DNA of 62,470 nt, counting the filler, from Sphacelaria rigidula (Eukaryota), in the NCBI GenBank assembly GCA_964200075.2. It is 5 parts of 5 records of this genome, joined end to end, with 100 filler letters (N's around TTAATTAATTAA, not from the genome) between each part and the next. Parts side by side here need not be neighbours in the genome. Positions count along the whole stretch, not along the records: positions 1 to 12,416 come from CAXNAA020003800.1; positions 12,517 to 24,931 come from CAXNAA020003801.1; positions 25,032 to 37,445 come from CAXNAA020003802.1; positions 37,546 to 49,958 come from CAXNAA020003803.1; positions 50,059 to 62,470 come from CAXNAA020003804.1. One strand, given 5' to 3'. The stretch's first letter is position 1. Every line of letters begins with the position of its first letter. Shown here piece by piece: positions 1,838 through 56,435 of this stretch. The notes under the pieces were generated by a model, which saw only the letters and a program-made list of their open reading frames with translations, searched no databases and had not been told where the DNA came from. Both the position numbers and the translations under genes were made by a program.

Positions 1838-3045
1838 TTGAGAGTAGAGGATGTGATTGAGAGGGAGAAGCGATCAATCAATGAATTAATAGTTTCGGGT
1901 TCCGAAATGCCCCTTCACGAGGCCCGATACGCTTTCTGTTGTAGCTTGCCACTGAAGCCCGTATTGATATCTCTGAGTAGGATATCGACGTGTAGCCGTA
2001 ATGAGCACACGCCAGTGTTACGGGCAAAGAAAAGCACACACAGAACGAAACGGCCAACTTAAAGCGAATGATGAAACCCACTCTCTGTCAACACGCTCTA
2101 CCCTCAATCTCACCGAAACGTTGTAAAATGCACGCCCCGGCCGTGATGTGTGGCTTCGCTCGCCCTCTGAAGAATAATCCATCCACAATTTGCGAATTCC
2201 GTACCGGAAAATCTCGACCTCCGATCATCCCCCCCGATACAAGAACTATGGTCAATGGTCAGACGACTAAGGCAAGCAACAAATGAGTACGCCCCCTTAC
2301 AAGAACTGTTCTTATTTGCAAAAAAATCCCCTGTGGCACGGTATTTATTATTTATAGATTCCCTACGAGCTGGACCAGCAGTAATTCCCACATTATTTGC
2401 ATGTCACACCATAACTCATCAACTTTACAAACTCAGCCCGACTTGAGTATATCGGTGTGACCTGCAGACCAACCTGGTAACGCACGGCACCGCCGCTGAA
2501 TGTGAAAAAAAATGAAAAAAAAATGTGCTGCATAATGTATGAACTTACCGACGGAACAAAAAAGAAATCCGTCGGGATTCGAGCTCGTGACCTCCATGAC
2601 TAGAGTCTCCGGTATCACTTGAATTAAATGGGCGCAGCGGTGCCACACAAAAATTTGGATGCTCCGCCAAACTTTTGGAACTTTCAACCGAAATTGCATC
2701 AGGATCTCCTCCACACAATGACCCACAACTACACCAGGAATGCCCCCGTAACTCGTGAAATTGAGAGTAGAAGATACGTTTGAAAGTGAAAAGCGGTCAA
2801 TTGATGAGTGCATTTCAGTTCCGAAATGCCCCTCCACGAGGCCCGATATGCTTTCTGTAGTAGATTGCCACCACTGAGGGCCTGTGATATCCCTGAGTAG
2901 GATATCGACGTGTAGCTGTAAGCACACGCCGGTGATGGAGACGAAGAACAGCACACTCGAAATGAAAAAAATGGCTAAGTTAGAGCGAATGATCAAAACC
3001 ACTCTCAATCAGAGCTCTATACTCTCAATCTCACGAAAACGCTGT
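1838..3045 (+). repeat. Diverged ~285-bp direct repeat pair (1838-2123 and 2761-3045)
   Basis: Shared TTCCGAAATGCCCCT..ACGAGGCCCGATA and CTGAGTAGGATATCGACGTGTAGC. Confidence 0.8.
2248..2291 (+). mobile_element. Poly-C-ended insertion, short copy with TSD
   Basis: TGGTCAATGG..GAGTACG flanked by CCCCCCGATACAAGAACT and CCCCCTTACAAGAACT. Confidence 0.75.
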
Positions 3046-4587
3046 TCCGTGGAAAACACAGTCTCGTGGCCAGCTTCGTCTGCAACACGCAAAAAATGTG
3101 TTGAAAAAGTTTTTCTCGATCCACCGCGGGTAAAAAGGGGGGAAGGGGGGGGCGGGGGCAGCAGGGGATCCGGATCTTTTTTTCTTATTATACCCCGCAA
3201 AATTCATATTCTGATTCCAAAAACGAATGGAAAAAAATGAAACAAGCGAAATAGAAGTGAGGATGAAGTGCGAATGAAGTGAAGGGGCGCAGGAATTTCA
3301 TATTTTGGCGGGAACCACAAAATGTACAACACATGTAGTTTCCCAGTACAGGTGTCAGTTAGGATCGGTGAAATGAAGCCCTTGAACCGCGAGCACAACC
3401 CACATGTTGAATCGGCATCAATTTCACTCGAAAAATTATGTGTGACCCGGATCGGCTACCCTCGCATCAAATTGTCAGTAGAAAGTACGTGATAAAAAGA
3501 ATTGTACGTACAAGTACGTACAAGTATGAAAATATTACACCGGAATCATACCACAAACACCAAGAAAAGGTTGACGCCAGGCTCTCATTCAGTACTCACA
3601 ACCACAAAAAGTGCGGTGCAAGCATTGGTATTGTTGAATTCCTCGGGGATCATTAGGTCATGTGCGAAATCAATTAGCCATTCGATCAACTACATGAGAC
3701 ATAAACATGCACATTACACTTGTGGAGCAGTCAGTGTGCGAGGACGCAGTTCAGCACACAATACACTACAGTGGCGGTAGTAGTGTAGACCACCTATGCT
3801 TTGTGTGCAGTTCTGCCTGTACATAAACAAGCGCAAACGTAGCACTTCGTTGCATTGCCAAGGCCTAATATGGTACAGGATGAGCACCCCCAGCCCGCTT
3901 ACACAAGACGACAGTTCACTGTTGTACTACGATGTCCAGATCTTCACATGGAGGGTGTCTCCAACTAGCGCGTACATACCGTGAGGTGTCAAATGACTCA
4001 TAGACTGCTGCACCCGAATCTCAGATTCTTACTATGTCTGTCTGTACAGTACTTGCACTGTCTGTGAACTGTGAACAGGTTGAACATGCGGCACAACCCT
4101 TGCCTCTTGGGCTTTTGATTGACCAACAGACGACACACAGACGTACCTCCGTAGGTTCCATGATTCTGTATGGTAGAGACTTCGCCTTATTTTCTCCCAT
4201 CCGCAAGCCACCAACGCGCCGTTTTTGTCTGGCGCTCCTCACAGCTGAAGGGCTTCATCAGCGATTCCGACCTTAGGGTGACTGCCACAGACGACGGTAG
4301 GAGAGCACCAACAAAGAAGAACTACGCAGAATATTGCCACTATTGATCGCAATCTCATACCGGTGAAAGTCACCGGTTAGACGGGCGGCTGGCCGTGTGC
4401 GTGTCTCCCGAAGCGTTCTCACGTATAGCGCTCTCCGAATTCGTGCCACGGACGTTGGAAGCGCTTCTCCCAGCGTTCAGAGAGAATCGAACCGCACCGT
4501 CACAGCTACCGCTAGCTGCTACTATTCCTCGGTCTACGAATACTGTAGGTAGCTCATAGCAGCTTGCATCGACTGTGGCTGTGACTC

Positions 4588-4932
4588 ATGTCCAAAGTAA
4601 CCATACTCAGAGGGAGCTCGCGTGCGGCGGCGGCGGCCGCCGCGGCCGTGGCCGAAGGTACAATTGCCAAGATGAGCATCGAAGGGCGATCGTCATCCTT
4701 GGTGCGGGCTGCTCCGGGGCGGTTTTTCTCGGCTCAAGCTCCGCTTGGGCTGCCGTTGGGCACACCGAACGGGGGGGGCAGTAATTACTGGTATAAGTGC
4801 CTAGCGGCGGTAGCTGTGCCGGTGGGGGTTGCTGTGGTACTGGGTTCGGCGAGCTTTGCTGAGGAACGACAACAGAGTCAGCAGCGCCAACAGATGAGAA
4901 GCGATGACCTAGAGCCACCGACGATAGAAGAT
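4588..4932 (+). CDS. Ser/Thr protein kinase (CAMK-like), exon 1: N-terminal extension with presequence-like and hydrophobic segments
   Basis: ATG 4588, 115 codons ending PPTIED, then donor GTAAGT at 4933; phase 0 joins cleanly to exon 2 (FYILDSG). Confidence 0.75.
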
Positions 4933-7600: not shown

Positions 7601-7641
7601 GGTGTACTCATGATCATGCATGCCATAGTCATGGGACCATT
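7601..7641 (-). mobile_element. Poly-C-ended insertion, short copy
   Basis: GGTGTACTCATGATCATGCATGCCATAGTCA is the reverse complement of the family 3' end. Confidence 0.65.
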
Positions 7642-9454: not shown

Positions 9455-9662
9455 GTGAGTATTGAGTTCTGATGTACGGATTGCGGCACGCCGTCGGAGG
9501 GCGGGGCGGGGAGGATTATGTAGATTTCAAAATGAAGTTGTCATCCATGCTTTTTCTTCTGCGAGACGACATGGACAGTTCGAGAACAGTTTCAGTACAC
9601 AGCGCATTGACATCTCTGCGGACACTATTTTTCCCTTACAGACGCTGCTGTGATCACACCAA

Positions 9663-9744
9663 TGCTCCGTCTCGAAAGGGATGCGTGGTCAATGGTCAAA
9701 CGACTAAGGCAAGCAACAAATGAGTACGCGCCCCCCCCCCCCCC
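9663..9744 (+). mobile_element. Poly-C-ended insertion in kinase intron 3
   Basis: GGGATGCGTGGTCAATGGTCAAACGACTAAGGCAAGCAACAAATGAGTACGCG followed by a long C-run. Confidence 0.75.
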
Positions 9745-10250: not shown

Positions 10251-12416
10251 TGCCCTGTCGACAGATCGTTGGTACCTGAAAAATGACGCCGAAATTTTGA
10301 TGTGATGGTGTTGTGCGAGAGGGAGAAAGGTGGAGGTGTGTGTTCCCAGTAGACGATTTCGGACCGGGGTAGATGGGTTCATTTTTTTTGGCATATTCGC
10401 GCGGGGCGGTTATATCTTGAGGGACAAGGGGGGTGCTTTTTTTATGCATCGTGCGAGCCTATGGGAGCGATTGCGCATTAATTGGCCTTTTTTGCCGCCT
10501 CGTGCACGTAATCAGCAGTTGTCGATTCTGGCTTGACTGGCAAAGAACCAAAGGTTCCGCGAAACTGAGGGCATGGGGCATGCTCATCCGTTCAAGATAA
10601 GACTCGGAATACTCACGGGAAATATTTTTCACGATCCGCCAAGGAGTGTTGTTGGGGTATGTTGTGTGTCACTCATGCGGTGTCGCAAACACACATACGG
10701 TGTTAGCCAGTGTGGTTTTAGAGGACACCCCAGGGTTGGGGCAGTGGTAGAATAGTATAGTGAAGTAACGGTTTGGCATCCGTGTTGGTGTCTCGCGCTT
10801 CACCTAGCAAAAACAGAGAAGACAGCGCCAGTCATTGAGCACGCTCATGGTGGTGTGGACCACAATGTCCACCACAATGGTGCACCAAAGAACACAAATT
10901 TGATCAGCGGAGTGACCACGGAGGACCCGCACTTGAGTGCTGCTGCTGGGCGATGAATGCCTTACTGTTTATTCACGTGAGGGATGGAGAGAAGAAGGGA
11001 CTACGGGGGGAAAATACCCCCCAAGAGCTTGGAATGCAACTGGTGTTACAGGAATGTGGGACTAGAACAGAACACGGGGTGCAACACACCGGTAGGTGCA
11101 ACGCACCGATGGCTTCACGTAGAGAGACACATTTTTGCTCGGTGTCGTGGTGTTGGAAGAGGGAGCTTTAGGTAGTCGTATACGATTTCGAATTATTGGA
11201 GAGGTGGGAGTGCGCGAGAGAGGAGCGATTGAAGGTAAACCTTTTCTTGTTTTCCTGTTTTTTTCACCCCCGTGAGGGTCTTGATATCTCAAACGGAGGA
11301 CGCATTGGGCGCTCGCTCAATGGTTTGCCGGAGGAACTGCAAGTGGGATCCCGGTTTGTTTCCGGCAGCTGGAGTACACGTAGGCGAGAAGCTTGCTGCT
11401 ACCACGGGAGTTGGAAACAAGTGGGAGGAGAGAGAGGAAAAGAGACTATGCAGGGATGGAGAGCATGAAACAACTAACATCTGATATATGTTTTTGGAGT
11501 TGGGCGATGGTTTTGGGCTCTAGCGCCGTACGAATTTACAAACGGAAAACTGAGCTTGGACGAAAAAATGGACTTGGGGGGGGGGGGAAATACTTGAATT
11601 GTTGACAAGATGAGCGGATGCAGGTTGCGTGACTTCCGTGGTGTGTGTGTGTGTGTCGTGTGCATTTGTGTCCGATTGTGCCGTATGCCGTGTGTACCTG
11701 TGTGTATCGTAGTCGTGTATCTGTGCTTCGTGCAACTCAGTTGTACTGTAGAGGGTTTGTGGGCGTCTGTCTTGTGCGTGTGCTTAGAGTGTCGTTGAGT
11801 GTTTTGACCCCCAAGAGATTGTTTTCGGGGGTTATTGTGGATGTTTCTTCACGCGAGTGTTTGCTGTTGTGTGTCGAGTTCGGCCGGGTGTCGCCCGGCG
11901 ATGAAATACGATATCGATTGTGTGTGCGGGGGGGGGGGGGTGATCCGAGGGAGTTCTCGTGGCGGCAATTCGTGTGCAAGCCGATTATTGTACGTTTATC
12001 GTGTGTATTCGAATGCGTGTATGATGTTTGGAGGGCTACTATTATATGCCACACGATTTTGTCGTACGCTGTGGACTAATTTTATATGTTTAGTTGCAGG
12101 GCTGTCTGTGCCTGCCACTTTTTTAGCGTGATTCAACGTCATTTTTTTTCTCGGTGTCTCCACTTGGTGTAGAGATGAAAGATAGACCGGACAAGCAAAA
12201 ATAATGTGATTCAATTTGATTAACATGCATCACGATCTTGTGTGCACACCGAACATGTATTGCTCCGTGTGTTCTCATCGTTCTTGTGTGTTGGGATTTC
12301 CCCTAAATATATGATGCCTCTCATTGGCATTATTGCCACCCCCCAATCGCGGTTCCCCCCCCCCCGCCGCCCCCGCCCCACCCACCCCCCCCCCACGACA
12401 AAACCCACACGACCAC

Positions 12417-12516
12417 NNNNNNNNNNNNNNNNNNNNNNNNNNNNNNNNNNNNNNNNNNNNTTAATTAATTAANNNNNNNNNNNNNNNNNNNNNNNNNNNN
12501 NNNNNNNNNNNNNNNN
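12417..12516. other. Assembly gap with artificial TTAATTAATTAA linker (also 24932-25031, 37446-37545, 49959-50058)
   Basis: Identical N44-linker-N44 structure of exactly 100 bp at four places. Confidence 0.95.
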
Positions 12517-12678
12517 ATGCGAGATCAATGGTCTGATGACTATGGCATGCATGATCATGAGTACACCCCCCGCCCCCCCCTCCCCCCCGGCGTGCTTCGT
12601 CCCGGCTGTGTAGGGATGCGAGGTCGATGGTCCTATGGCTACGGCATGCATGATGATCAATGCAACCCCCCCCCCCCC
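12517..12678 (+). mobile_element. Two tandem poly-C-ended insertions upstream of the PP1 exon
   Basis: Two successive family 3' ends, each followed by a C-run. Confidence 0.75.
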
Positions 12679-12730
12679 ATCCATAAATGCTCAACCATTC
12701 TCCTCTCCGGTGTTCTTCTCCGCTGAAAAG

Positions 12731-12904
12731 GTGGTAGAAGATGGGTACGAGTTCCAGGCGGACCGACAGCTGGTGACGCTCTTCTCCGCGCCCAACTACT
12801 GCGGGGAATTTGATAACGCCGGAGCTATCATGTCGGTCAACGACAACCTTGTGTGTAGTTTCCGGGTGCTTCGCCCTGCCTCCCACCGACGGTACATTAC
12901 GTGA
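12731..12904 (+). CDS. PP1: Serine/threonine protein phosphatase PP1-type catalytic subunit, terminal exon (partial gene)
   Basis: [36 protein letters not shown] matches the PP1 C-terminal signature (SAPNYC); preceded by a pyrimidine tract and AAG acceptor. Confidence 0.9.
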
Positions 12905-15255
12905 AAGTATGCATTCCAGTCCAGCCAGTGGAGTCTTGACTCGTTGAGTTTCGTTGATTCGTCGTTAGTTTTGTTCGTGTTCTTTATTCATTCATCATCT
13001 ACGGGGAGTGTTGTGACGAACGGTGCTGTCATTTGGGTGGTTATTGGGAAGTTTGTTAATTTTATTTCGCCATTTTTTTTGCGTCTGACCGTGTCTGATT
13101 GTGTGTGCGTGTCGCCTCTTTCTATAGTGACTGTGTGTGTTTTACTCTGCGAGTGTCTGTGTTTGTCTGTGCTTTCAGCATACAACATACCATTTACCGT
13201 GTCTCTCTTGTGTGAGCACCGCCACATTCACAAGCGGATGGCTCTTCTTTTTCTTCGAACGTTTCCCCCTTCCTCTCATCATCATGCATCGCGCTGGCCG
13301 TACTGGGTAAAACTAGTTATACAGCCACCCTTCTGGTATTGTACTGCTCTTATTTTTATTCCTTTCTTGTACGAAGAGGACACGTTTACTTGAAGACGTA
13401 TAAGAGCCTGGTTTGTCGTTTAATTGCGGTTTACTATCCCCCATCCCCTGAACCGTGTGAAGAGTCACTGAAGCGTCCAAGGTCAACTCCACGTTGTGGT
13501 GTGCTGCAGCTGTAGTCCTCGTCAGTGGTTCTGGTGGAAGAATCGAGTTCATTTCTGTCCCCCGAAGGGCGAGCGAGCGAGCGAGGTAAAGAGAACGATA
13601 TTCGCATCGACCTAACGTTTCAACGTGTTGGTTTAATAAAACAGATACCCCGGTCAATATAGAGGTGTGTAGCGATCAGCTTTTTTGTATGTATGGGTAT
13701 AGACCTTTTAACCGCACACGTGACTGTGAGGACGCTGACTTGGACCTATGGCACTGCCATGGGCGTAAATCTCTGCGGTTCCAGAGGATACCGTAGGCTA
13801 CGGACCATTATCCATTGCTCGGGGCGATAAGAAACCTGACCTGGATGTCATGTTGAACTACGGCGGCCACGCCCCCGAAAATTTGGGTGTCCCTAGATAT
13901 CTCGAGTCATTGATTTTTTTTTTCCGATGAATACGAGACTGTGCGGCAGCACGGTGTCTAATTTGGTGAAGAAAACTGAGCTTGTTGGGAGGTTCTTCTC
14001 GCCTCAGGTGGTGATGCTCCGTCAGCTACGATGCCTGTCTCGTCATTTGAGAAAGATCTTACAGGCTCTATCGAAATAGATATCCCGGGAAATTGAGAGA
14101 AGAGGACACAACCGTCGGAGTCGAATACCCCCTTGACCAACACTATACTGCGCGGATGACGTTCGAGTGCTGTGTTTTGTGTCCTTTGTGCGGCTGAGAA
14201 TATGCTCTTGGTATGGGGGGGAATGGAAATTGGGGGGGAAACGGGGGGGAGGTATTGTTCTGGTCCGGCGGTTCTGTGGTTGTTGGAGCGAAAAGAGTCG
14301 CGTGATGAATGCCGCATAATTGAGCAACCGGGACACGGAAATTACGTTGTCGTGTCGTCTTTTTTCACGTGCCCGAGTGGCTGTTGCTGGCGTGGGGTGT
14401 TGTATTTATTGGGATTTTTTGAATAGGCAGTGCACACACGCACTTACAGGCCAATCAGGTTATGGTGCGGCGGCATTGTTCTCATATGGGGAGGGGCGAG
14501 AGGGGGGGAGGGGAGAGGGATCGCCGTCGCTGGAGTTACCTGTTTGTACATACGCATACGGAATTTTGTGCATGTCTTACGGAGTTGGGTGAAACTTTAG
14601 AAGAAATTGCTCGTTGTCTTTGATCATATTTTCGCTTTTTTTGGTGATGTTTCAACGAGTCATCGTATCTACAGCACTGCTGTAAGCCTCGTTTTTGCTT
14701 CCCGGTGGTGAAGTGAGGGACATCTACCGTCTGTTGTGCGCAAAAATGATGAAGATTCCTTTGATGTCTACGACAGCCACTTGTTATACCTTCGGTGAGC
14801 GAGAGGTTTTATCGCTATAGTGAGAACGGGTAGCTACATTTCATACGTGATACTCCAGTTTGTACGGCCGCGAGGGTGTCCATCTGGACCATACATACTT
14901 TTTGCAAGTGAAATTGAAGCCGCTTCAGCAGATGACCCATGCTCACCGTCGAAGGGCTGAGGCTCCAAATGACGGGTAACTCGAAAAATTTGTGTGGTGG
15001 CATGAAGGTGCGCGGCGATCGTTCTTGTGCTCGTTGTATCGCTTGCGCATGTGTTGGGACATGATTCTAGGTGAGTTGCGCATGATCGCATGCTTGGCGA
15101 CGTTCTGTTGACACCTCACGCGTCATCGGATCTTCTGAGGGATTGTTATTGTTATTATAATATTTTTTATTGTATCTTTTGTCTGTGTTGATTTTTCTGG
15201 AATTCTGTTTTTTTTTCAAATCATTTCCTTATCCTCAGGTTTGGGTAGATAGCGT

Positions 15256-19102: not shown

Positions 19103-20656
19103 CTGGACAATATTTAAAAAAGGATACATCCTGGTGCGTTTGGAACAAAAAAGGGTACTGTATGTTTCGGTTTGGGGCGCGGCGCTGCACGCAGGCTGAA
19201 CACCTCCAAAACATGTTCCAGCGCTTCAGCCACACGTCCAAAGGTGTCTGGGCAGCACGTCCGATCATTTTTTTTAGTTTCACACGTGGTACTAGGCTTA
19301 ACTACGGTGTAGAAAAAGACAGCCTGTGAGAGTACCCTTTTGTTGTAAACAAACCACGAGGGTATACCCTGCTCTCTGCTGAAAAATCATCTTGCCCTTT
19401 CTTGTTCACCTGTGAGCCTTTTAATGCTCAAGTGCATACCCTTCTTTACTCTCTTTTGTAAAGTGGTGACCGTACCGCCGGCTCCGCAGAAGATTCGCCG
19501 GGCAGTCTTGACCATATCCACTTTTTTGTGAATGACACCCCGCCAAAAAGGCCGAAATCCAACGACAAAGGACTTGTAGCCCCCTGCTGGTTGGCCCGCA
19601 GACCCCAAAAATCCGACGATGCATATAGCACGCGAACGCTTGTGTGCCGGAGCCCGCAAAGATGCAACGAACATGCGTGAAAAATCTTGCCGACACAAAC
19701 GCCCGAACGGCATTACAGTACATGTTCGTTGGATCTTTGTGAGCTCCGGCACACAAGCGTTCGCCTCCGGTATGCATCGTCGGATCTTCTGAGTCTGCGG
19801 GCCAACCAGCAGGGGGCTACAACTTCTCGATGTTAGGTTTCGACCTTTTTGGCGGAGTGTATTTCGCAAAAAATGGGTATGGTTATGACTGTTCGGCGCA
19901 TCTTCTGCGGAGCCGGCGGTACGGTCACCATTTGACAAAAAAGGGTAAATAAGGGTATGCACTTGGGCATTGAAACAAAAGAGGGTAAGATATTTTTTAG
20001 CAGACCGCAGGGTGTACCCTCCTGGTTCGCTTACAACAAAAGGGTACTCTCACAGGCTGTCTTTTTCCGCACCGTAGTTAAGCCTATTATAGTACCACCT
20101 GTGAAATTAAAAAAATGGTCGGGCATGCTGCCCAGACACCTTGGGTGTGTGGCTGACGTGCTACAATACATTTTCGAGGTGTTCAGCTTGCGTGCAGCGC
20201 CGGGCCCCGAACCGAAAAATGCGATACTCCTTTTGTTCCAAACGCACCAGGGTGTATCCTTTTTTGTATATTGCTCTATCTTTTGCGGAGCCGGCGGTAC
20301 GGTTACCACTTCACAAAAAGTGTAAAGAAGGTGATACACTTTGGCATTAAAACAAAGAAGAGCAAGATAATTTTTCAGCAGACCGCAGGGTGTACCCTCT
20401 TGGTTTGTTCACTACAAAAGGGCACTCTCACAGGCTGTCTTTTTCTGCACCTTAGATAAGCCTATTATAGTACCACGTGTGAAACTGAAGAAAATGGTCG
20501 GGCATGCTGCCCAGACACCTTAGGTGTGTGGCTGAGGCGCTAGAACATGTTTTCGAGGTGTTCAGCCTGCGTGCAGCCCACGCCCCAAACCGAAAAATGC
20601 GATACTCTTTTTTGTTCCAAACGCACCAGGGTGTACCCTTTTTTGTATATTGTCCA
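19103..20656. mobile_element. Foldback element with ~570-bp inverted arms and a duplicated outer right arm
   Basis: 19103-19676 is the imperfect reverse complement of 19721-20272; 20278-20656 repeats ~19903-20272. Confidence 0.8.
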
Positions 20657-37500: not shown

Positions 37501-37777
37501 ANNNNNNNNNNNNNNNNNNNNNNNNNNNNNNNNNNNNNNNNNNNNATAATAATAATAATAATAATAATGATGATAGTGATAATAATAATAGTAATAATAA
37601 TAATAATAGGGGCAGTGTGAATATGAATACCGTATGGTGACCTGTATGAGGTATGTTTTGATTCTAGACACAACCTTATAGTATACCCTCAATAGGTTCG
37701 CCCTCGTACTGTACCAGTATGCAGTAAGAGTCTCACATGTGAGGTTCATTGAAAATCCTGCCCCCCCTTGTTAATCG

Positions 37778-37840
37778 CGAAAGGGATGCGTGGTCAATGG
37801 CCAAACGACTAAGGCAAGCAACAACTGAGTACGCGCCCCC
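37778..37840 (+). mobile_element. Poly-C-ended insertion with imperfect 18-bp TSD
   Basis: Flanks GCCCCCCCTTGTTAATCG (37760-37777) and GCCCCCCCCTATTAGTCG (37841-37858). Confidence 0.75.
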
Positions 37841-37955
37841 GCCCCCCCCTATTAGTCGTATGATCAGCTATTTTTTCCTCCGATGCCATTCGTTCCTGGT
37901 GTTGATTACTGTTGAAATTATTATGAACAAACAATCGCACATATACACAACGCAG

Positions 37956-38099: not shown

Positions 38100-38946
38100 G
38101 TGGGGTTGCTTGAGTTTTGCTCGGGCTGGCGGGGTGGGGTTAGGTCGGGTAGTTCAAGTGAAAACATGAAGACAAATTGTGCACAGCTGTGACAATAAAT
38201 CAATCGATCTATCAACGACGCATTTTACATTTCTACACACACGTATGACGTGCTGTTTTCTTTCACGTAACACGTAGTGGAGAATGATTTCACCAACCCC
38301 TCCCTCACGAGACTGTCATTTTAAGCCTGCTTCGCTTCACCACTCTTGTACTTGACCCTTCATCATGCAAGGAGGAAGGAGATCTATCGATGGTGATTTG
38401 TCGGCTGAAATATTTCAAGGAGTGAAGGAGGCGATGATAGCACAAAACATGCAAAAATGTGCTGGTGTCCAGCTTTCAACGAGATGAAACCCGAGGCTTA
38501 GACAAGATTTGTTTTCCAGAGCTCGGTTCGTTCTTGAACTTTCAACCCGACGTTTTCAAAAGCGCCCTCCCCCGACCCCCTTCCCTTGTTCATTTGTATT
38601 GCTGTACGTAGTAACGTTTGGTGACGTAGAGGTGATGTTCTTCGTTCCCCTGGGATTTATATATCTGTTGCAGTTCGCCACAATCTTGTCGGCCTGCACC
38701 TGATGGTGTTTCTGTTCGTCAAGTGAAGATGATCTATCCGCACCTTTCCCCATCCTTGTAGTATCAATTTTGCTTTCAGTTGCTGGTGTGTCAAGTCTGC
38801 CACAGTACGACGTTTCACCCTCCATTCTTTTTTTTTTATTTTCAAATTCTGCTCTTTCCCCCCCTTTTTTGTTGTTGCTCTTGTTCCTTCCTGACATATT
38901 TTGGTGTTCGTCCGTGTTTGTATCATGTCCTTCTCATTACCCGTAG

Positions 38947-39092
38947 TCGCTGCTCCACGAAGACCACAGCCTGACGTCACATGTGCAGATTCGTGGGTCT
39001 ATCCCCGTGCTCTGGAGCTCCCCGACTAACCTCCGGTATCACCCCAAAGTCCGGATCGACCCAGACGAAGAGGCCTCCCTCAGGGCACTCAG
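38947..39092 (+). CDS. SAC1: SAC1-family phosphatase exon (absent from ORF track)
   Basis: CCGTAG|TCG; SLLHEDHSLTSHVQIRGSIPVLWSSPTNLRYHPK (QxRGSIP motif); GT at 39093, phase 2. Confidence 0.9.
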
Positions 39093-39820: not shown

Positions 39821-39911
39821 ACATATATATATGTGCATATATATACAACAACCTGACATCAGCTCTCTGCCTCTGCGCGGCCGTCAAATCTACGAAAAAA
39901 TAACAAGACAG

Positions 39912-40347
39912 TCAACACTGCGAGGATTTGATTGGCTTGTACACGGGCGCCACCAATACCACCGCTGACGCCACCAGCGCTGCGGATGCCGCTGGCGATG
40001 TCGGCGGCAGCGGCGGCAGTATACTGTTTGTGAATCTGGTGGACAAGAAGAAGGAGCAAGGTGCCCTAGGAGAAACGTTCGACTCTGCCCTCAGGATTGT
40101 TGCATCCGGCGTCGGTAGCCACCGTCAGAATCAGACGGATGGTGCTGACGCGGATGGTGACAGTGATGGCGTCCCTCCTGACCGCAATCCTGAGCTCACG
40201 GGAGCAGCCGTTGAGGATGGTGCGACTGCGAGGAATGCGGGGGCGGCGGCGGCGGAGACGGGGGAAGCTTCTGCCGGTACTAGTGCGAGCAGAGGCCTAA
40301 ATCTGGTCGGCTCCCTGCGACACGTGTGGTTTGACTTCCATCACGAG
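39912..40347 (+). CDS. SAC1: SAC1-family phosphatase exon
   Basis: GACAG|T completes the phase-2 codon; QHCEDLIGLY, VNLVDKKKEQGALG, WFDFHHE; GT at 40348. Confidence 0.88.
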
Positions 40348-40442: not shown

Positions 40443-40525
40443 GGGGAGGGGGGGGGGGCGTACTCATTTGTTGCTTGCCTTAGTCGTGTGACGATTGACC
40501 ACGCATCCCTTTCGAGACGGAGCAC
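40443..40525 (-). mobile_element. Poly-C-ended insertion in a SAC1 intron
   Basis: G-run then CGTACTCATTTGTTGCTTGCCTTAGTCG..CATCCCTTTCGAGACGGAGCA, the reverse complement of the 9663 copy. Confidence 0.75.
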
Positions 40526-40817
40526 TGGAGGGGAAATCGTGGATGGGAAGCAATGTTTGAAGTTGTTGTGACACTCGTACGGTAGGGGGGTGGGGAAGTA
40601 GAACGTGTGTGGTGTCGGTATGGTTTGCGTATATCTCGAGAGGACGCAAGGCCAATGATTTTGATGAGGACAGGTATGACTAAAATACGCGAGTACTCCG
40701 GAGTATCCATTTTTGAAACAGTGGTTGCCCCTTTGTCCTGTGTTCGTTTGCATACATGCTGATGAACGTTTCCTAACCTTCTGTCCCTTACCCCCCCCTC
40801 CCCCTACAATATGCACC

Positions 40818-41292
40818 TCACTTGCGTAAGCTAGGCAACCAGGTTACCGATTTTGTTTTTTTATCGCTTGCTTTTTTCTTTCGGAAACCATGATGATAGG
40901 TCGAGCCAGATGATTTTGTGTGAGGTGGAGAACCCGAACTCCGCACACAGGGGATGGTCGTACGTAGTGTTGAAATAGGGAAATGCCCATGAGGCAGTAT
41001 AAGCCGTGGCTGCCTCTGGAAGTGGCGGCACCAGGAATTGAAGCAACTCATTAAAGCCCGTCATCCATATTCAAGATAATCGGTACGCTCCGGGCCGAAC
41101 AATCTTAGCAGGATGCAGCTCACCTTCATGTGACTCGCTGAACATATCACGCCGCTTCGCGCTTCGTGCTTGCGAGCCTGGTCCGGCGAAAACCCGGCTT
41201 GTTCCGTCCGGACTTTGTAGGGATGCGTGGTCAACAGCCACATGACTAAGGCGTGCAACACCATGAGTACACCCCACCTCCCCCCTCTCCCC
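40818..41292 (+). mobile_element. Long (~470 bp) copy of the poly-C-ended element
   Basis: Colinear with 43897-44380 from GCGTAAGCTAGGCAACCAGGTTACCGATTT to CATGAGTACAC; C-rich on both flanks. Confidence 0.8.
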
Positions 41293-41333
41293 TATACACA
41301 CACGCATACTGTTCCCCGTCGTATTGCGATCAG

Positions 41334-41531
41334 TGTCGGAACATGCACTGGGAGAACTTGGACAAGCTTCTGGCTATCGTGGATAAAGAATTCGGAGAAC
41401 AGGGGTTCTACCATGTGGGTCCTGAGGGGGAGGTTCTCGGTGTTCAGGATGGGGTCGTGCGAACGAACTGCATGGATTGCCTCGACCGAACAAATGTGGT
41501 GCAGAGCCTGCTCGCTAGAAGGAGTATGTTG
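41334..41531 (+). CDS. SAC1: SAC1-family phosphatase catalytic exon
   Basis: QDGVVRTNCMDCLDRTNVVQS with CX5R(T) motif at 41469-41492; CAG acceptor, GTGAGT donor. Confidence 0.96.
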
Positions 41532-41777
41532 GTGAGTTCAAGTGGTGTACACTGTACAAGTATTTTAATGGATGTTTTGAAAATTCAGTTACCTTCGTAC
41601 GAGGGGGCACGTACTCTCAAATATCTGCACCGCACACTCACTATTATTTTAGTCCAGGATAAGGAGGTGGGGGGGGGGGGGGGGGGAAGGGGGGGCGTAC
41701 CCCAATTCCGGGAAATGAAGCGGTAAGGTGAGGCGGGACGGATTCTTGAAGNNNNNNNNNNTTTTGGGTATGGTTGT

Positions 41778-41818
<41 letters not shown>

Positions 41819-42906
41819 GGGGAAGGAGGGGCGTACTCCAATTCCAGGTAATGAAGCTGTCAGGTGCAGTCGGACAGATCTCTGAAGTGAAGTTGAGTCA
41901 AGCATGGAATCTCGTACTGGTTTTTGGAGTGAAAATATGTGCATGTTTGCTTTGTTTTGTCTCATTTCTATCTATCTCCTCCCGTTCCTCGGGGCGAGTC
42001 CGTGATTTCAAGGTATCGGAATCCATATCGAACCCGGTTCACGCCTTACATTTTGGTAATCTTGGATTGGGTCAGCACTCCCCCAACGCGTCGACGATAG
42101 CCTAATAAACTCATGATATATAAATATAAATATATATATATTGGGTGTTCACGTCTTCGTGTCTCCAACGACGGAAATCATATTCTTGTGGGATGAAAAG
42201 CGAAAACCAGGCTCATCCGGTGGAAATCGAATCCGCGTTTTTGTCGACGTAGTGGCCTCAGTTGTATGCATCAGTACAACAAAGGGGCGCGGCGGCTTTG
42301 TTATGAGAAGTTGACGAGAATTGACCGTGAGTCAGAGAACCGAACAGGCATGAAACTAGAAAATAAGAGGTGAAATAAGTTGCTGGATATGACGGCTGCA
42401 AGCTGTAGTTATGGGGTAAGAAAAAGTCGGGTCAGGTCAGGTCAGGGGTACTAAGGTGAACAGAGTCACCCCCGCAGAGGATGCAGGTGTCTGCAAAGCT
42501 TTCGTTAGCTGTCTTTCGCTCGATATGGGCACTATTTGTGTTTGGTCCAAAATATGAGAGACGGCGAGGGCCGGGCGGGCGGAGGAAGAACCTAGGGAGG
42601 CATATAGCCCCGTGTTGCAAGTTGTTCCAGTATTTCCTTGTTTTCCGTTTTTTTTTTCAGTGTGTGTGTGTATTTGTGTCTGTTATGAACGTTTCAGGCT
42701 GCTCGGCGCAGACCTAGGTTCGTCTTGGTCCTTCTTGAGTCCGCCCCCATAATGTGACGTACCTACACATGGACTGAAACAGCTTAGTGCGCCTTGAACA
42801 TCGAGATGGTTTGCGCACGGACTTGGGTATGAAGAAGCCAGGCATGCATCCACGCGCAAGACTTGTAGTTCGAAGTCACAAGCATTTACGCTTGTTTCCC
42901 ACCAAG

Positions 42907-43058
42907 GTCCAACTGCATGCGGTGGGGGTGGACCTGCCCGATCCGGAGGGGGCCAATAGCACGGCCCTGGCGCTGACGCTCGACATGCTGGAGATGCCGG
43001 CCGAGGAACTGGAAAGGCGCTTTAGGGACGTTTGGGGCAACAACGCCGACGAGATCAG
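42907..43058 (+). CDS. SAC1: SAC1-family phosphatase exon
   Basis: CCAAG|GTC; FRDVWGNNADEI; GT at 43059, phase 2. Confidence 0.9.
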
Positions 43059-43300: not shown

Positions 43301-43621
43301 ATGGGAGTAAGAAGAAGATGAGCCCAGGTGGGGGGGCGCTAGGTGCGTTTTGTCGTTGAGTTCGTTTTTCCCCAGTCACAATACTCCCAATCACAACGTG
43401 AGATATGTTGATCATAGCATCGTTGGCTTATTTTTCGCCACGAAAACGCCAAGGTGGGGACTTGTCCGTTTTTATTTTGTCTCATGACCAGATTTCTGCA
43501 GCCGCACTCTTGCAGGTCTGTTTCCTACGGTAACTGCTACCTCCGTTGTGCACTTAAGTTTTGTCCTTGAAATCGTGCGCCTCCGAGTCGTAGAGTACCC
43601 CCCCCCCCCCCCCCCGCCCGC

Positions 43622-43653
43622 TGATGACTATGGCAAGCATGATCATGAGTACA
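43622..43653 (+). mobile_element. 32-bp poly-C-ended insertion with perfect 12-bp TSD
   Basis: CCCCCCGCCCGC at both 43610-43621 and 43654-43665. Confidence 0.8.
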
Positions 43654-43850
43654 CCCCCCGCCCGCCCTCGAGCCTTCCTGTATCCTACCATGTTGTGTCG
43701 CTTGGTAGGTGTAGGCGATTCAGATATTGTACTGTGGTAATTTCGTGGAAAAATCATTTATCGGAAAACCCAGGCAACTTTGTCTGTGTCACGAAGATTT
43801 GAACAAACGGTAGGATCCCTCCCTCCCTCCTTCCCTCCCTCCCTCCCCCA

Positions 43851-44381
43851 CATTAGGTTGGCGTCGGTTGGCAATGACGCTGTGAAACACACCACTAACT
43901 GCGTAAGCTAGGCAACCAGGTTACCGATTTGCTTTTTGCGCGCTAGCAGTTTTTTGCGGTAACCATGATGATGGAGCTCGAGCTGGGTCATGTTCTGCCG
44001 GGTGGGAGAACTTTGATTCCGCGCGAAGGGAAGGGTCACATGGAATACGCAGTGTTTATATCGTGCGACACTCGTGAGGCAGTGTGTAGCACGTGAATGT
44101 CTTTGGAAGTGTCGACCCCGTAAAATGAAGCAATTCATTGGAGTTTGTCATACAAATAGAAGGTAATCAGTACGCTTTGGGCGGAAAAATCTGAGCAGGA
44201 TGCTCCTCAATCTTCATGCGACTCGCCAAACACATCACGGCGCTTCGCGCTTGGTGATTGATTGCGAGCCTGGTCCGGCGAAAACCCGGCGTGCTCCGTC
44301 CGGGCTTTGTAGGGATACGAGGTCAATGGTCAGATGACTACGACATGCAACATCATGAGTACACTCCACCTCCCCCCTCCC
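43851..44381 (+). mobile_element. Longest copy of the poly-C-ended element
   Basis: Colinear with 40818-41292; lies between a (CCCT)n tract and the C-rich tract of the next acceptor. 5' boundary approximate. Confidence 0.8.
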
Positions 44382-44403
44382 ATCCCGCGCCTGCCCCCAA
44401 CAG

Positions 44404-44535: not shown

Positions 44536-44871
44536 GTAAGGGTTGAATATAATGAAGCACGTGAGGTCGTGGTAAGGTGGAGACGTGTGGAGAGGAAGGG
44601 GATGAGCACAATTCCATGGTATAATTGTTCGGTACTGTAAGGCTGAACACGAGTTGTTTAACCTACTCACGTCCCGAGTTGATGAAACATGCACACAGAG
44701 TTTTTTGTACTTTCATTTCGTCGTTCTCGCTCTCGACGTGGTCGCATCGATGATGATGATGGGCCGTGCTCTCTGTGCGATCTCGAACGGCATAGACAAT
44801 GTTCCGACTGAAAGTAACACGGCCGTTCTCCGCCCTCATGCGGCACACTTACGCACACGTCAAACGTGCAG

Positions 44872-45532
44872 GCGACAAGAGGCAGTGGACTTGCTGTTGG
44901 GCATACACCGGCGTCCGGTAGACTCAGATGGCAATCCAGTTCCTGAGACCATCAAAGAGCCGCTTGATCTTGATCTGTGGACAACCCGCCTTTCTCCTCT
45001 ACCCCAAGGCGACGCCACTATCATGAGTGGCGGCGAATCGGAAGCTCTAGCTACCGCTACTGTTGTCGGTGAAGGCAAAGATGATCATTTTGGGACCGGA
45101 AGAGCAAGGAAACGTGATCAAAGTCGGGGATCTGAAGGCGAGGGCAAGAGTTGTACAGAAGATGGCGGTGAAGGTGACGGTTCCAAGGTCGTTGGGCGTT
45201 TTTCGGATCGCTCCTCAGAGCTGTCCCCAGACGATTCCTCGTCCACTGAATCAGAACTGAGAGATGGAGAGGAAGACATTTTGAGTGTGGGATTAGATGG
45301 AGACTTCAAGGGCCGGCCACGCGGTGGAGGGGTCGCGGGAGTGACTGGATGCCCCGCCGCTGGAGCGTCGGGTGCTGCAAATGGGCTCGATTTGAGGGTG
45401 GGCGGAAATGAGGCGAGGCGGGTAGCTGAGGGAAGGGGAGAAGTGGGCAGCGGTGGGATTGTGGGTAGGGTGGCCGGGACGGCGCTGGCAGAGTTGCGCA
45501 TGGCAGGACCTTACTCTGCGTTGGCTTTAACG
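44872..45532 (+). CDS. SAC1: SAC1-family phosphatase exon with long low-complexity tail
   Basis: TGCAG|G; RQEAVDLLLG (end of the conserved Sac1 region), then G/S/D/E-rich sequence; donor GTAAGC at 45533. Confidence 0.82.
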
Positions 45533-49470: not shown

Positions 49471-49698
49471 GGGGGTGGTTCGGTGGGGGCTATCGCGGCA
49501 TCACTCATATACAACAACAGAGCGCTTGGCAAAAATACAAGAGCCCGTGAAAATGGGAAATCGTATCGGGAAATTTCAACGGGAGACTGTCAACTTTGCT
49601 CAACAGGCATCACGGAAATGCACGACTAAATCGAGAGCGGAAACGACATCACGGAAATGCACGACTGAATCGAGAACGGGAACGAATAACAGAGGATT

Positions 49699-49958
49699 CT
49701 ATAAAATGAGGTTCATCAATGAAATGAGGTTCGAGCTCGAAACAGTACTTTCTCCAAGCTTTCAGCGATGGTGCCCAATGACTTGTCGGCCTAATGCCCC
49801 TCGATCGCGTAGATACGTTTTCAGCGCATTTTATCGACTGTGAGCTTACAGCGCTGTCCGAAACCGCCATTTCCACTTATTTTTTAGGGGGGGTGATCTA
49901 AGGGAAGACAGCAGTTTCAGTCAGCGCTGTAAGCCCACCGAGTCGGTAAAATGCGCTG
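49699..49958. mobile_element. Second copy of the 52299 palindromic MITE, cut by a gap
   Basis: CTATAAAATGAGGTT, GCCCCTCGATCGCG, CAGCGCATTT, then the inverted arm begins before the Ns. Confidence 0.72.
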
Positions 49959-52298
49959 NNNNNNNNNNNNNNNNNNNNNNNNNNNNNNNNNNNNNNNNNN
50001 NNTTAATTAATTAANNNNNNNNNNNNNNNNNNNNNNNNNNNNNNNNNNNNNNNNNNNNATACGAAGATTTTAATCCTCCGGGTTCTCATCCTCAATCAAT
50101 AGCACCATCCTCAACATAGATGATTGGCTGTTATATGCGAGAAAGGTCTAAAAAACGCGTGATATAGTACGCGCCAAAAAAGGCAGCAAAAGGCGTGGTT
50201 AAAGCGGCTTGGGGACGACATATGCGCGATTCATGCGCCCCCCCCCCCACCACAACGCCTTTCCCCCCCCCTCGTAGTAAGGAGGAAACCTCACACCCAA
50301 CACTTACCCCACGACGGGTGAGTATGCCGATCATCTAGAGGCTCAGCTAGACCATCGTGTGGCGATCATATGGGGTAAGCGTCTCGAGCGTTCGGATAGC
50401 TTTATTGCTCGAGGCACTGTGGGAGTTGAACCCACTGAAACCCCTCGTCAACACGATGCAGTGCACGTGGCGCCCTACTCTAATGAGAGTCAGATCTTGT
50501 GCATGCAATGACTGTGCTGAGCTGCTGATTCTACTCCGTGCCCCATAAGCCCCCGCACACTAGAGCACTTCTTTGATCGGGACATCTTTGTGGTGTGCAA
50601 TATGCCAAAGTGCGGCACGTTTCTAAGTGGAACACGACCAACAAGGCGGATCCATTGATCGCTCGGTTGATTGATCGATCGATTGGTGCACATTGAACTG
50701 ATCCGCTCCGAATCCAGCAGCTATGTAAGGGGGACCGGGAGGGGGGGAGGGGGGTGCTCCCGTTGCTAAATACATGTGACACAAAGGTACATACGTTTAC
50801 TCAGAAATACCGCAAGAGACGCCGAAGACCAACGGTCATGTGCGCGAAATTCCCAAAGGTATGTGCGTGAAAAACAGTACACACAACTCATCACCAAGCG
50901 GCCAAAGGCGGGAATACGCGAAATACTAGAAACAGAAGGAAGACGAAAAAGCGTTGGAGGTGAAAAGTCTAAGCAGAATAGGATCCCGGCTCCTCGAGCC
51001 GTGTAAATACGTATATCTAGAAGGGTACTCTTGTGAAGACTCCATCCAATGGGCTGGTGCGTGCTTGACTTTTCCTGGGTACCTTCCATCTCCTTGAAAC
51101 TTGTTGATGCTGCCGTGCGAAGCCTGGCTTAACACCTGGTTTTATAACTACGGCATGCAAGATCATGACTACCCCCCCTCCCCCCCCCCCCCCCGAAAAC
51201 GCCCACTTGTGCTGGCGACGTGAGCGGATAGACTCAGAATGTTATTTCCGAGAAAATACGCTGGGTTTGGTGACATGGTAAATCACTCGGTAAAAAAAAC
51301 GATTATGTGGAGTGTCATGGTTGCTGTTGCTGGAGGTTGGGGTACATGGTTACACGGCATTGATTCCCGGAGGGTGAACAATAATACTTACCCCGCGTGC
51401 ACACCTCTCGAGACCCGTGCCTAGTGGTATACAGGACGGCGAGGGTCCATGAAAAATTAATACAAGCAAGGTCCTAGAGATGGTGCCAGGTCGGTCTCGA
51501 CAAATGCCATCGGAAAACCCGCACCACAACTTCCGGGGTCGATACGCTTGTTTAGTGGTCGTTTTTCATTCAGGAGCTCGATCATGCCGTATAGGTGAAA
51601 ATATTCCGTCGCGTGAAGTACCCTCGCACTATACGGATACCTCCCTACGTCAGTACGGAAAAGGGTGCACGTGTTTTTTCGCTCACCCTCCTGCAGAATC
51701 TTTTCTCATTGTGCCGTGAGACGCTGGGACCTCGTACTTGCGCATGGTGAAGGCTGCGGGTGAGAACGCCGACGCCTGACAGACAAGAGATGCATCGAGC
51801 GGAGCAAGCGAGTGCGAGAGAGAGGGAGAGAGCGAGGAAGAGAGCGTGCATGAAGTGCCGAGATTTTAAAGACCTGCTGACCCGTTTGGAATTCGCGATT
51901 ATTGCATGGATGATGCCCTAGACGAAGGCCACAGTGCCTCAAGTGGTAGCTATGGTTCGGATTGAGGTTCAAGTTTTTGTGTCTTGGCTGAGGCTAACCA
52001 TTTTGTTACCTGCTTATTACGCCACAAAACTCCTTGCACAGCACATGCGAAGTCGAAATGATTGCCCATACCTTTCGTGTGTCAGAACGTGTAGAAAAGA
52101 CGGAAGATACCGGAGCCTGAGACAAGAAAATCTTCCGCAGCGATGAGCTCCGTCTGCGAGATCGAGCTATTTTCTCAGGCCTCGCTAGCCCAGCCCAACG
52201 CGGGGTGAAGGCTCTCGTACTTTCAACCAGAAGGTGCAATAGAGTGGGCACACTGCTATACGGATCTCATCGGGCCAAAAGGCTGTGAACAGACAAAC

Positions 52299-52713
52299 CT
52301 ATAAACTGAGGTACCCTAAAATGAGGTTCAAGCCCAAAGCAGTGCTTTCTCACGCTTACAGCGACGGTGCCCGACGACTCTTGTCGACCCGATGCCCCTC
52401 GATCGCGAAGGTTAGTTCCCAGCGCATTTCACCGATTCTGTAAGCAGGCAGCGCTAAGCGAAACCCTCATCTTCCCCTGATTTGGGGTAGGGTGTACTCA
52501 TGATCATGCATGGGGTAGGGGGTGTTATCAGAGAAAATGAGGTTTCGCTCAGCGCTGCAACCTCACAGAGTCGGTAAAATGCGCTGGGAACTAACCTTCG
52601 CAATCGAGGGGCACTAGGCCGACAAAAGAGTCATCGGGCGCCGTCGTTGTAAGCGTGGGGAACGCACTGTTTTGGGCTTGAACCTCATATTACCGTACAA
52701 CCTCATTTTATAG
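52299..52713. mobile_element. Palindromic MITE with ~185-bp arms
   Basis: CTATAAA.TGAGG to CCTCATTTTATAG; the arms are near reverse complements. Confidence 0.8.

Positions 52714-53871: not shown

Positions 53872-53940
<69 letters not shown>
53872..53940. repeat. (TG)n microsatellite
   Basis: Seen directly. Confidence 0.95.
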
Positions 53941-53941
<1 letters not shown>

Positions 53942-54907: not shown

Positions 54908-55210
54908 GCCGCGCTCCGGCGGTGCAGGGGTCCGACTGTCGCCACTAAGGTCGAGAGAGCGCGGGTTCGATTCCCGATGCGTTGGGTCTTTTCTTCGTGA
55001 TATCTGATTTCCACCGTGGAAAGTGCGAGAACGTGAGTAAACAAAGTAGTTTACTGAGTTTGTTTGAAGTGACTTGACGCGGTGCCGGAGTGCTGACCCA
55101 ATTCCCTAGACCAAAATCCAAGGCGTGTACCGGGGGAGAGATTGCTGATCCCTCGAGACCACGGACTCGTCTCGAGGAAGGGGAGGGGTTCAAAGCGTGT
55201 CGAAAAAAAA
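54908..55210 (+). mobile_element. tRNA-headed SINE
   Basis: Colinear with 26524-26796, including B box GGTTCGATTCCC and CCCTCGAGACCACGGAC; ends in A8. Confidence 0.75.
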
Positions 55211-56370
55211 TCACGTGTGAACCGACAAAAAAACTGTCGGGTGGCTCAGCTTATAGTATGAAGCAGGTCTTCAAATTGCTCTCCCTGACCTCGTTGAGTA
55301 TCTGCTGCAGTAAAATATTTCGGTGAGTTGTTTCTTCCTTCCCCTATAAAGTCGAAGACGTTTGCAACAACAAATGAAACAGCCCCGTTAATGAAGGCCC
55401 TAACATTTCTGCAGGCTGTAGTCGCTACAAACACCCTAGCTAGTAGGTCTGGAGCGCCATGTAATCCGTCAGATGTTAACTCCTTCCTTCATAACAGAAG
55501 CTGAACCGGTGAGAGGCTGTTCCAGGTTCACATTGGGACAGGCACACCGGGAGTTTGGTCATCATCTCCACCATCAACGAAGCCCTATACAGCATCCTCC
55601 GACATCCACCCTCCAACCCCAGTTTCCCTCCCCTTCGCATCCGTCTGTCACCTTCAACGCTTTGGCCGCGACGAGTTCGAGATATTTCAAGAAGCTGCAA
55701 CTCGTACACAAAGACCGATGCACCAAGCAGTCCATCGACCGCGCGAGTGGACTCTCTCAAGAGGACAAACCTCGGGGTCAAGGGATTAAAACCCCTTGAC
55801 CGCCCATGGTAGTAGGTAAAATCTGTTGAGTCAGTATCTTCTTCACTTCATAATCGAGTCCCCGAAAGAGTCCTCAATTTACTTCGTCGGCGCACTTTTT
55901 TTTCTTGATCGGCGCACGAAGGGACACAACTATTCCAAGGGTGCGTTGGATAGGGTCATGTCCCGAGTAGTTACCCTCCCGAAATTTTATGTTGCGATAG
56001 TCTTATCTTCAAACTCTTCCCAAACACTACACAGGTGCGGTTGCAACATTCTACCCAATAATATTTGGTCAGAGTTGAGCACGACCTCAATACTCCACCC
56101 AGCTTTGGGTACCGTAGAGTTCGATTTTTCAAAAAAGCCAAATGTGGGAAATATACCTTTGTACCCTACCAAACAAACCCTTGTTTCGTCTCTTCCTTTC
56201 CGGCAAGCCCGTAGCCACTCTGTGCTCGAATGAAACCAAACCCCAGTATATATAGAATGCAAGGGCCCACGGGGCGTTTCGTACGGTCTGTTTTTAAATC
56301 AACACAGGACAAAGAACAAGGAGAAGGACTGATGCCGCAATAGCACCCCCACCCCTCGCTCATGTTCGCA

Positions 56371-56435
56371 GGGGATACCTGGTCAATGGTCAAAGGACTA
56401 ACGAAAGCAACAAATGAGTACGCCTCCCCCCCCCC
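56371..56435 (+). mobile_element. Poly-C-ended insertion, short copy
   Basis: GGGATACCTGGTCAATGGTCAAAGGACTAACGAAAGCAACAAATGAGTACGC plus C-run. Confidence 0.7.

Follow-up and report, generated by a model that had tools for sequence, protein, structure and literature searches.

A C-tailed repeat family of Sphacelaria rigidula and its probable origin from an RTE-like LINE with non-autonomous passengers

Repeat copies and their genomic setting

The DNA analysed here is a stretch of 62,470 nucleotides, filler included (the window), from the assembly GCA_964200075.2 of the brown alga Sphacelaria rigidula. It joins five contigs of 12,416, 12,415, 12,414, 12,413 and 12,412 bp, each one base shorter than the previous one; these are separate contigs and not a single locus, and no feature can be read across the four linker positions. 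The window holds a family of repeats that share one 3′ end, mostly GAGTACRC followed by a C-run, and whose 5′ ends are cut at differing points. These copies very probably represent a long interspersed element (LINE, a non-long-terminal-repeat retrotransposon) of the type that uses an apurinic/apyrimidinic endonuclease (APE), together with non-autonomous elements that borrow its 3′ end.

An earlier note on this DNA had listed about 13 copies with the fixed end GAGTAC(A/G)C plus C-run and with the other end truncated at varied points. All 13 were confirmed by BLAST and in anchored print-outs, and their 5′ ends do differ, giving copies of 20 to ~530 bp. With at most one mismatch, the window has 21 occurrences of the motif GAGTACRCCC where 5.1 are expected, and none of 100 shuffles got to 21. 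The likeness extends beyond the bare motif: in self-BLAST and in the anchored print-outs the last 45-90 nt align among copies, as the end of a repeat family. The note had also reported that no inverted partner end is present, and none was found in self-BLAST. On the minus strand at 20010-20638 we also observed three GGGTACACCC matches from a tandem-like repeat, with a spacing of ~240-380 bp, which are unrelated to the C-tailed family.

We sorted the copies into three types (Table 1), namely A-type, taken as 3′ ends of the autonomous LINE (five copies, 48-85 bp), B-type, taken as 5′-truncated non-autonomous elements (six copies, 20-90 bp, of which two differ in their last bases), and L-type, taken as long non-autonomous elements (two copies of about 450-531 bp). 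Aligned over 482 bp, the L-type copies share 76% identity, and 31 bp near the 5′ end are identical; no open reading frame (ORF) with a Pfam match was found in the one at 40804-41292. Both copies that the earlier note placed at 12517 exist, but the first begins at the contig edge and is cut there. That note lacked a fragment encoding part of a reverse transcriptase (RT) at the start of the window, a stub at 43593-43615 and a second family on the minus strand (41669-41887). The second family has only GRGTACGCCCC and the C-run in common with the others; its two copies are 136 bp apart with a 10-N gap between them, and the family may travel as a passenger with another LINE that has the same last bases.

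Table 1. Repeat copies and linkers, with positions counted along the whole window. TSD, target-site duplication.
Position	Strand	Feature	Length, tail and junctions
1-173	-	LINE RT-coding fragment, 5′-truncated	Runs off contig start; found by tblastn and blastn; C13 at 174-186 directly upstream on the element strand
2249-2296	+	A-type	~48 bp; TSD TACAAGAACT (10/10) at 2238-2247 and 2298-2307, C-run before each (C7 at 2229-2235)
7601-7641	-	B-type	41 bp; C7 (7642-7648) adjoins 5′ end; 3′ tail just CC; no clear TSD
9662-9744	+	A-type	83 bp; C14 tail; 5′ junction without C-run; no clear TSD
12417-12516		Linker	N44-TTAATTAATTAA-N44, between contigs
12517-12588	+	B-type, cut by contig start	Tail C6 G C8 T C7
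12589-12678	+	B-type variant	90 bp; ends ..GATCAATGCAA + C13 (also given as ..CAATGCAA+C13); head-to-tail behind the C tail of 12517-12588
24932-25031		Linker	As above
37446-37545		Linker	As above
37778-37849	+	A-type	72 bp; 17-bp TSD at 37761-37777 and 37842-37858, 2 mismatches, starts C7/C8
40442-40526	-	A-type	85 bp; tail C11 T C4 G; 5′ flank CCCCTCC
40804-41292	+	L-type	450-489 bp, 5′ limit uncertain; C8 T C5 just upstream; last ~70 nt homologous to the LINE tail
41669-41751	-	Second family	Shares only terminal GGGTACGCCCC + C18; 5′ end cut by 10-N assembly gap
41778-41887	-	Second family	Ends GAGTACGCCCC..C40
43593-43615	+	Stub	GAGTAC + C18, the latter serving as target for copy 43622-43667
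43622-43667	+	B-type	46 bp; exact TSD CCCCCGCCCGC (11/11) at 43611-43621 and 43655-43665
43851-44381	+	L-type	465-531 bp; certain from 43900, probably from ~43851; (CCCT)n..C5 tract upstream
49959-50058		Linker	As above
51145-51194	+	B-type variant	50 bp; ends ..CATGACTA (..GACTA) + C7 T C15; 5′ junction without C-run; no clear TSD
52492-52511	-	B-type, centre of foldback repeat	20 bp; TSD CCTACCCC (8/8) at 52512-52519 and 52484-52491
56357-56435	+	A-type	~79 bp; tail CT C10; 11-bp TSD at 56346-56356 and 56426-56436, 1 mismatch

For the L- and B-type passengers, ARAGORN predicted no tRNAs and Rfam gave no match on the copies at E<=1, so that no small-RNA origin was found for their 5′ part; a short interspersed element with a 5′ part derived from tRNA, 5S or 7SL RNA was rejected on these searches. 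Helitron and terminal-inverted-repeat readings were also rejected, there being no inverted partner end and no hairpin-CTRR end, and the length of the TSD varies. Over the whole window Rfam returned four sub-threshold matches, none on the copies. At 61350-61475 (plus strand) the matches were MIR837 at 42.6 bits (gathering threshold 117) and MIR9746 at 41.3 (gathering threshold 79); this is most likely an inverted repeat forming a hairpin, and no microRNA is called here.

The family is very abundant: the summed contig depth in three DNA runs is ~1e6 over the copies against ~30 on flanking single-copy DNA, a depth that is not to be read as copy number. The window also contains exons that code for a protein kinase, ribosomal protein L35 and a SacI-homology protein, according to Pfam on its ORFs, the closest named relative of the kinase exon being from Scytosiphon (44% identity). 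One record of run X6 joins 38945-39089, 39909-40345, 41332-41530, 42906-43055 and 44869-45531 in the manner of a spliced transcript, and the copies on contig 4 fall in the intron-like parts that this record skips, as a spliced transcript would. There are 77 C/G runs of at least 6 in the 62 kb of the window. Long C or G runs lie at or beside contig ends (62402-62470, with C51 closing the window, 12339-12394 and 24926-24931), which is consistent with homopolymers breaking the assemblies.

The autonomous partner and its conserved 3′ end

Of the 75 ORFs of at least 120 aa in the window, 74 were compared with Pfam (the one at 12461-12964, which overlaps a linker, was excluded), and none matched an RT or endonuclease. 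The earlier note had advised extending copies 5′ in search of an RT/endonuclease ORF, and an ORF with Exo_endo_phos and RVT_1 was indeed found upstream of the tail in metagenome and genome contigs. A degenerate tail pattern run against metagenome contigs hit nine loci, seven of which were chance matches in bacterial coding sequence; the two true ones (L004 and L006) have an A-type tail with the same upstream sequence and one long ORF upstream of it. A third locus, L010, came from scanning genome contigs at the protein level; this copy is full-length and the sole one in its metagenome-assembled genome (MAG), in which it is mis-binned. In all three loci the long ORF encodes APE and RT and ends within the window-type tail. 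For the L006 and L004 ORFs, Pfam matched Exo_endo_phos at E 7e-13 and 3e-11 and RVT_1 at E 1e-30 and 8e-33.

The L006 ORF measures 1,426 aa from stop to stop (L006:122-4399, minus strand). L010 and L006 are 78.5% identical over 4,910 bp, and the element is therefore ~4.9 kb long. Its one ORF of ~1,360-1,400 aa comprises an N-terminal region, the AP endonuclease, the RT and a C-terminal Cys/His motif. In the ~230 aa before the endonuclease (L006 residues ~60-130; P0121 N-terminus) we noted a conserved block, ..VLVFGV..EFK..GL..F..EGEHFRV.., which has no Pfam match and might represent a module for RNA binding that became fused to the ORF. The ORF terminates in ...NGAPSRKGCVVNGQTTKASNK (...CVVNGQ(T/M)TKASNK). 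In L004, L006 and L010 the TGA stop lies inside the conserved end, as AAA TGA GTACGC followed by C6 to C13, leaving a 3′ untranslated region (UTR) of ~6 bases plus the C-run. The A-type copies are therefore coding 3′ ends of the LINE.

Two matches tie this LINE to the window. The last 79 nt of L010 (5087-5165) are 97% identical to window 9663-9741, within the A-type copy 9662-9744. In addition, window 1-173 encodes on its minus strand RT residues 816-872 of the L006 ORF at 89% aa identity, and matches L010 3311-3483 at 82.7% in blastn; this fragment is too short for the Pfam ORF scan and was picked up by tblastn only. The tail match and the RT fragment thus indicate that this genome contains the partner, of which a fragment lies in the window. 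The autonomous partner had been placed outside the window by the earlier note; full-length copies were indeed found only outside it (L004, L006, L010), but this 173-bp piece of RT lies inside.

The locus L010 also bears on the passengers. Just behind the C tail of its LINE, L010:5166-5259 resembles the 5′ part of the L-type, with which it has a 14-mer (window 43876-43889) and additional similarity in common. Because 43876-43889 matches this flank, the copy at 43851-44381 probably starts near ~43851; the comparison of the sequences suggests that the tail of the L010 LINE has received a passenger and that the L-type element begins upstream of 43900.

Relatives of the partner ORF were found among Ectocarpus sp. 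proteins, which are 48-66% identical in aa and carry the label 'unnamed protein product'; one gene model ends ..GRVANGQMTTASNK (also ..NGAPSRKGRVANGQMTTASNK). More distant relatives, at 35-40% aa identity, keep the 3′ core and end ..GGGTGCGTGGTCAATGGCGTAAGCGCTACGGCAGCAACATGAGTAT, TGA, then GTAT, with ATTAT.. following in 10 of 16 ends. A simple repeat directly after the stop, the layout of RTE/RTE-X elements, is thus present in L004, L006 and L010 and at these 10 of 16 distant ends. Many RTE-like LINE copies with (ATT)n tails were observed on contigs CBDBCZ01... of 0.09-2.8 Mb that are labelled as a Nitrospirales MAG (L011, L013, L015-L018, L020-L022, L024, L026-L030, L032-L038). Their number suggests that these contigs are eukaryotic and mislabelled; L012, labelled Nitrososphaerales, is similar.

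The 3′ core itself is a 14-nt sequence, TGCGTGGTCAATGG, that overlaps the last codons of the ORF (CVVNG). It is identical, synonymous sites included, in LINEs at 35-40% aa identity (L011-L017, L012), and it is largely retained in the non-coding L- and B-type elements. Identity at synonymous positions and retention in non-coding elements argue that the core is constrained at the nucleotide level and acts in cis in addition to coding for protein. Across 10 sequences, pairing reaches 93% in a stem-loop (TGGTC-loop-GACTA, part of a longer, imperfect stem), compared with 23-44% for slid controls, and we propose a 3′ hairpin tentatively.

Insertion sites, proposed mechanism and alternative readings

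Clear TSDs flank five copies and measure 8, 10, 11, 11 and 17 bp. The earlier note had seen TSDs of 10-19 bp beginning with the C-run at 2248, 37778, 43622 and 52493; all four sites have one, but the lengths are 8-17 bp, and a fifth was found at 56357. In the flank print-outs there is no clear TSD at three of the short copies (Table 1) or at both old L-type copies. Of 12 copies, 8 have a run of at least five C in the 25 nt upstream of the 5′ junction, where the window background is 2.8% (P ~2e-10); once the two copies sitting behind the tail of another copy are removed, the figure is 6 of 10 (P ~9e-8). At 2249-2296 and 37778-37849 the unique part of the TSD does not include the 5′ C-run, which therefore belonged to the target already before the element arrived. 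The tails C14, C7TC15, C13, C6 and C8 were found without a 5′ C-run or in full-length copies; since the first two belong to copies whose 5′ junction has no C-run (9662-9744 and 51145-51194), the tail travels with the element.

The copy at 52492-52511 lies in a foldback repeat of ~390 bp (52311-52698) whose arms are 85-87% complementary. A second partial copy of this repeat (49773-49958) stands at the end of contig 4, and the summed contig depth over the foldback is ~2e5, which suggests an abundant family resembling miniature inverted-repeat transposable elements, with a C-run at its centre. The paralogous foldback at 49830-49958 is without the insert and one of the TSD copies and has C7 at that place; it is weak evidence of an empty site, the paralogs being just ~75% identical.

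Taken together, the fixed 3′ end, varied truncation and TSDs, lack of terminal repeats and an APE plus RT ORF joined to the 3′ end of the repeat point to an APE-type LINE. Target-primed reverse transcription (TPRT), which the earlier note had put forward, is supported, decisively by the APE plus RT partner. From the sequences we infer the following course of events. The element protein would bind its own RNA at the conserved final ~55 nt, and L- and B-type passengers would be accepted through their copy of this stretch. The endonuclease would then nick the bottom strand where it carries a G-run, read as a C-run on the element strand. As the TSDs begin with the C-run, nicking would leave G's at the end of the bottom strand; these could pair with the terminal C-run of the RNA, and this G-rich 3′ end would prime reverse transcription. 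A second nick 8-17 bp downstream would produce a TSD that starts with the C-run, and an often early halt of reverse transcription would give 5′-truncated copies of 20 bp to ~1.8 kb or more. Every insertion would leave a new C-run, which would account for the head-to-tail stacks at 12517/12589 and 43593/43622 and fits the density of C/G runs in the window.

This course has a parallel in mammalian L1, in which the TSD starts with a homopolymer matching the tail; pairing of the nicked strand with the RNA 3′ end would lead one to expect this. The L1 tail is a poly-A tail from polyadenylation, and the nick site is TTTT/AA. In contrast to L1, the C-run here follows a conserved element-specific 3′ core, which makes recognition of the 'stringent' type likely.

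Several observations weigh against an APE-type LINE that primes on its C-run. The window holds no full-length copy and no endonuclease sequence, and the partner comes from three metagenome/MAG contigs that may belong to a related species. The 5′ junction is without a C-run in 4 of 12 copies, and the copy at 7601-7641, with C7 upstream yet nearly no 3′ tail, is not predicted by a simple model. Three of the five A-type copies start within ~6 nt of one another (9662, 40526 and 56357), at ..TGCTCCGTC, which is less random than plain truncation, and a joint between a G-run and this start point recurs in many contigs. Neither a polymorphic empty site nor a clean joint skipping a copy was found on contig 4 in four runs, whose contigs break at repeats. 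As for the hairpin, covariation was seen at just 2 of 11 pairs in a structure derived from the same alignment, and five 3′ ends folded thermodynamically had no excess stability over shuffled sequences (z -0.4 to +2.1).

Three other explanations were weighed against these data. The copies could be Chlamys-group Penelope-like elements (PLEs), which carry a GIY-YIG nuclease and insert at (C)n and (CA)n, or non-autonomous derivatives of these. The available part of PMC8557442 reports insertion targeted to (C)n in many Chlamys elements, 5′ truncation, head-to-tail copies and non-autonomous derivatives sharing the 3′ end, all of which are matched here, the head-to-tail pairs by those named above; and in Ectocarpus, according to the portion available of PMC12477816, three Chlamys families amount to 4,782 copies, just 27 of them intact. 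The ORF that ends in exactly this tail, however, matches Exo_endo_phos and RVT_1 and has no GIY-YIG match at E<=0.01, so that an AP endonuclease stands where those elements have GIY-YIG linked to RT; no pseudo-LTR structure was seen here, a fragment of the same LINE's RT lies in the window, and head-to-tail pairs are equally explained if each C tail acts as a new target. Membership of this group is thus highly improbable, and the copies were not assigned to it. The identity of the LINE may instead stand while its C-run has no part in priming: the protein, by its endonuclease or a DNA-binding region, would prefer C/G homopolymer DNA, the tail would arise by slippage or read-through, and the match of tail and TSD would be a by-product. 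Sequence alone is ambiguous at 2249-2296 and 37778-37849 as to whether the TSD includes the C-run or starts after it, tail length ranges from 2 to 18 or more, the nearly tail-less copy at 7601-7641 fits as well, and RT slippage is proposed as one source of RTE tail repeats in the text available from PMC2887409. We regard this as rather unlikely, given that the exact TSD CCCCCGCCCGC at 43622-43667 starts within the C-run itself, that the copies at 9662-9744 and 51145-51194 have tails though their target lacks a C-run, and that in the (ATT)n-tailed relatives the tail repeat is a heritable property of the lineage.

The ~70-bp A-type copies might also be a discrete mini-element, or arise because ..TGCTCCGTC is a favoured point for stopping or template switching. 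The clustered A-type starts speak for this, as do joints from 40524 to the G-run at 41667/41668 in 22 (X1), 30 (X3) and 3 (X4) contigs. Those joints are nevertheless weak evidence, as each side measures 20-24 letters and lies in repeats; the remaining A-type starts differ (2249 and 37778, plus the RT fragment at 1-173), and loose ends at 40525 run on into LINE sequence (CGTTCCTACTCC.., the reverse complement of L010 ..GGAGTAGGAACG). This explanation is unlikely. For the APE-type LINE with passengers that we prefer, a wider reading is that a LINE lineage swapped an A-rich or trinucleotide tail for a plain C-run and primes on G-runs, that its insertions plant new targets and so build up the poly-C/G tracts of the genome, and that TGCGTGGTCAATGG with the small hairpin is an unusually ancient RNA handle for RT. 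As a whole, this joint reading may hold, but it is tentative and falls short of probable.

Comparison with known systems and significance

The earlier note knew of no described family of this kind, a statement that does not stand, as the RTE layout (PMC2887409), an RTE-X passenger in Ectocarpus (PMC12477816) and the (C)n insertion of Chlamys elements (PMC8557442) have all been published, to judge from the parts of these papers that were available. RTE-type LINEs are described in the accessible text of PMC2887409 as having a simple repeat right after the stop codon, a short 3′ UTR and TSDs of variable length, and lepidopteran RTE elements as generating microsatellite families. The present element resembles them in its single APE plus RT ORF, very short simple-repeat 3′ UTR, varied TSDs and short truncated copies seeding repeat tracts. 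Unlike in RTE, a mononucleotide C-run forms the tail and the TSDs have their start in C-runs; and compared with the 990 aa given for HmRTE-e01, the ORF is longer (~1,360-1,400 aa) and has the C-terminal Cys/His motif. By layout rather than by an RT tree, the element is classed as an RTE-like LINE with passengers whose C-run tail and targets are uncommon.

The closest comparison by host is with Ectocarpus, for which curated RTE/RTE-X LINEs and a non-autonomous element of ~600 bp (RTEX-N1_Ec32), which has the RTE-X 3′ end in common, are reported (PMC12477816, as far as its available text goes). Both systems have a brown-algal host and an abundant passenger of several hundred bp that shares only the 3′ end of the LINE (here the L-type) and is frequent in introns. 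The likeness to RTEX-1/2_Ec32 follows from the published description, in the part available, and from the homology to Ectocarpus gene models at 48-66% aa identity. The main text of PMC12477816, in the part available, makes no mention of a C tail or of C-run targets, and the C-tailed family may already be in the curated Ectocarpus library. Among the papers listed in literature searches there was no printed description of a C-tailed LINE nor of RTEX 3′ ends, which is weak evidence of absence.

For the biology of this family, the element would provide a natural example of pairing between tail and target in TPRT with a base other than A. Its conserved 3′ core, which extends over the stop codon, is a candidate RNA signal read by RTE-like RTs. 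One abundant LINE and its passengers can create homopolymer tracts and then re-use them, and such C/G tracts would be what breaks short-read assemblies of this alga. Finally, when brown-algal introns are annotated, short pieces that end in GAGTACRC(C)n can be attributed to this LINE instead of staying unclassified.

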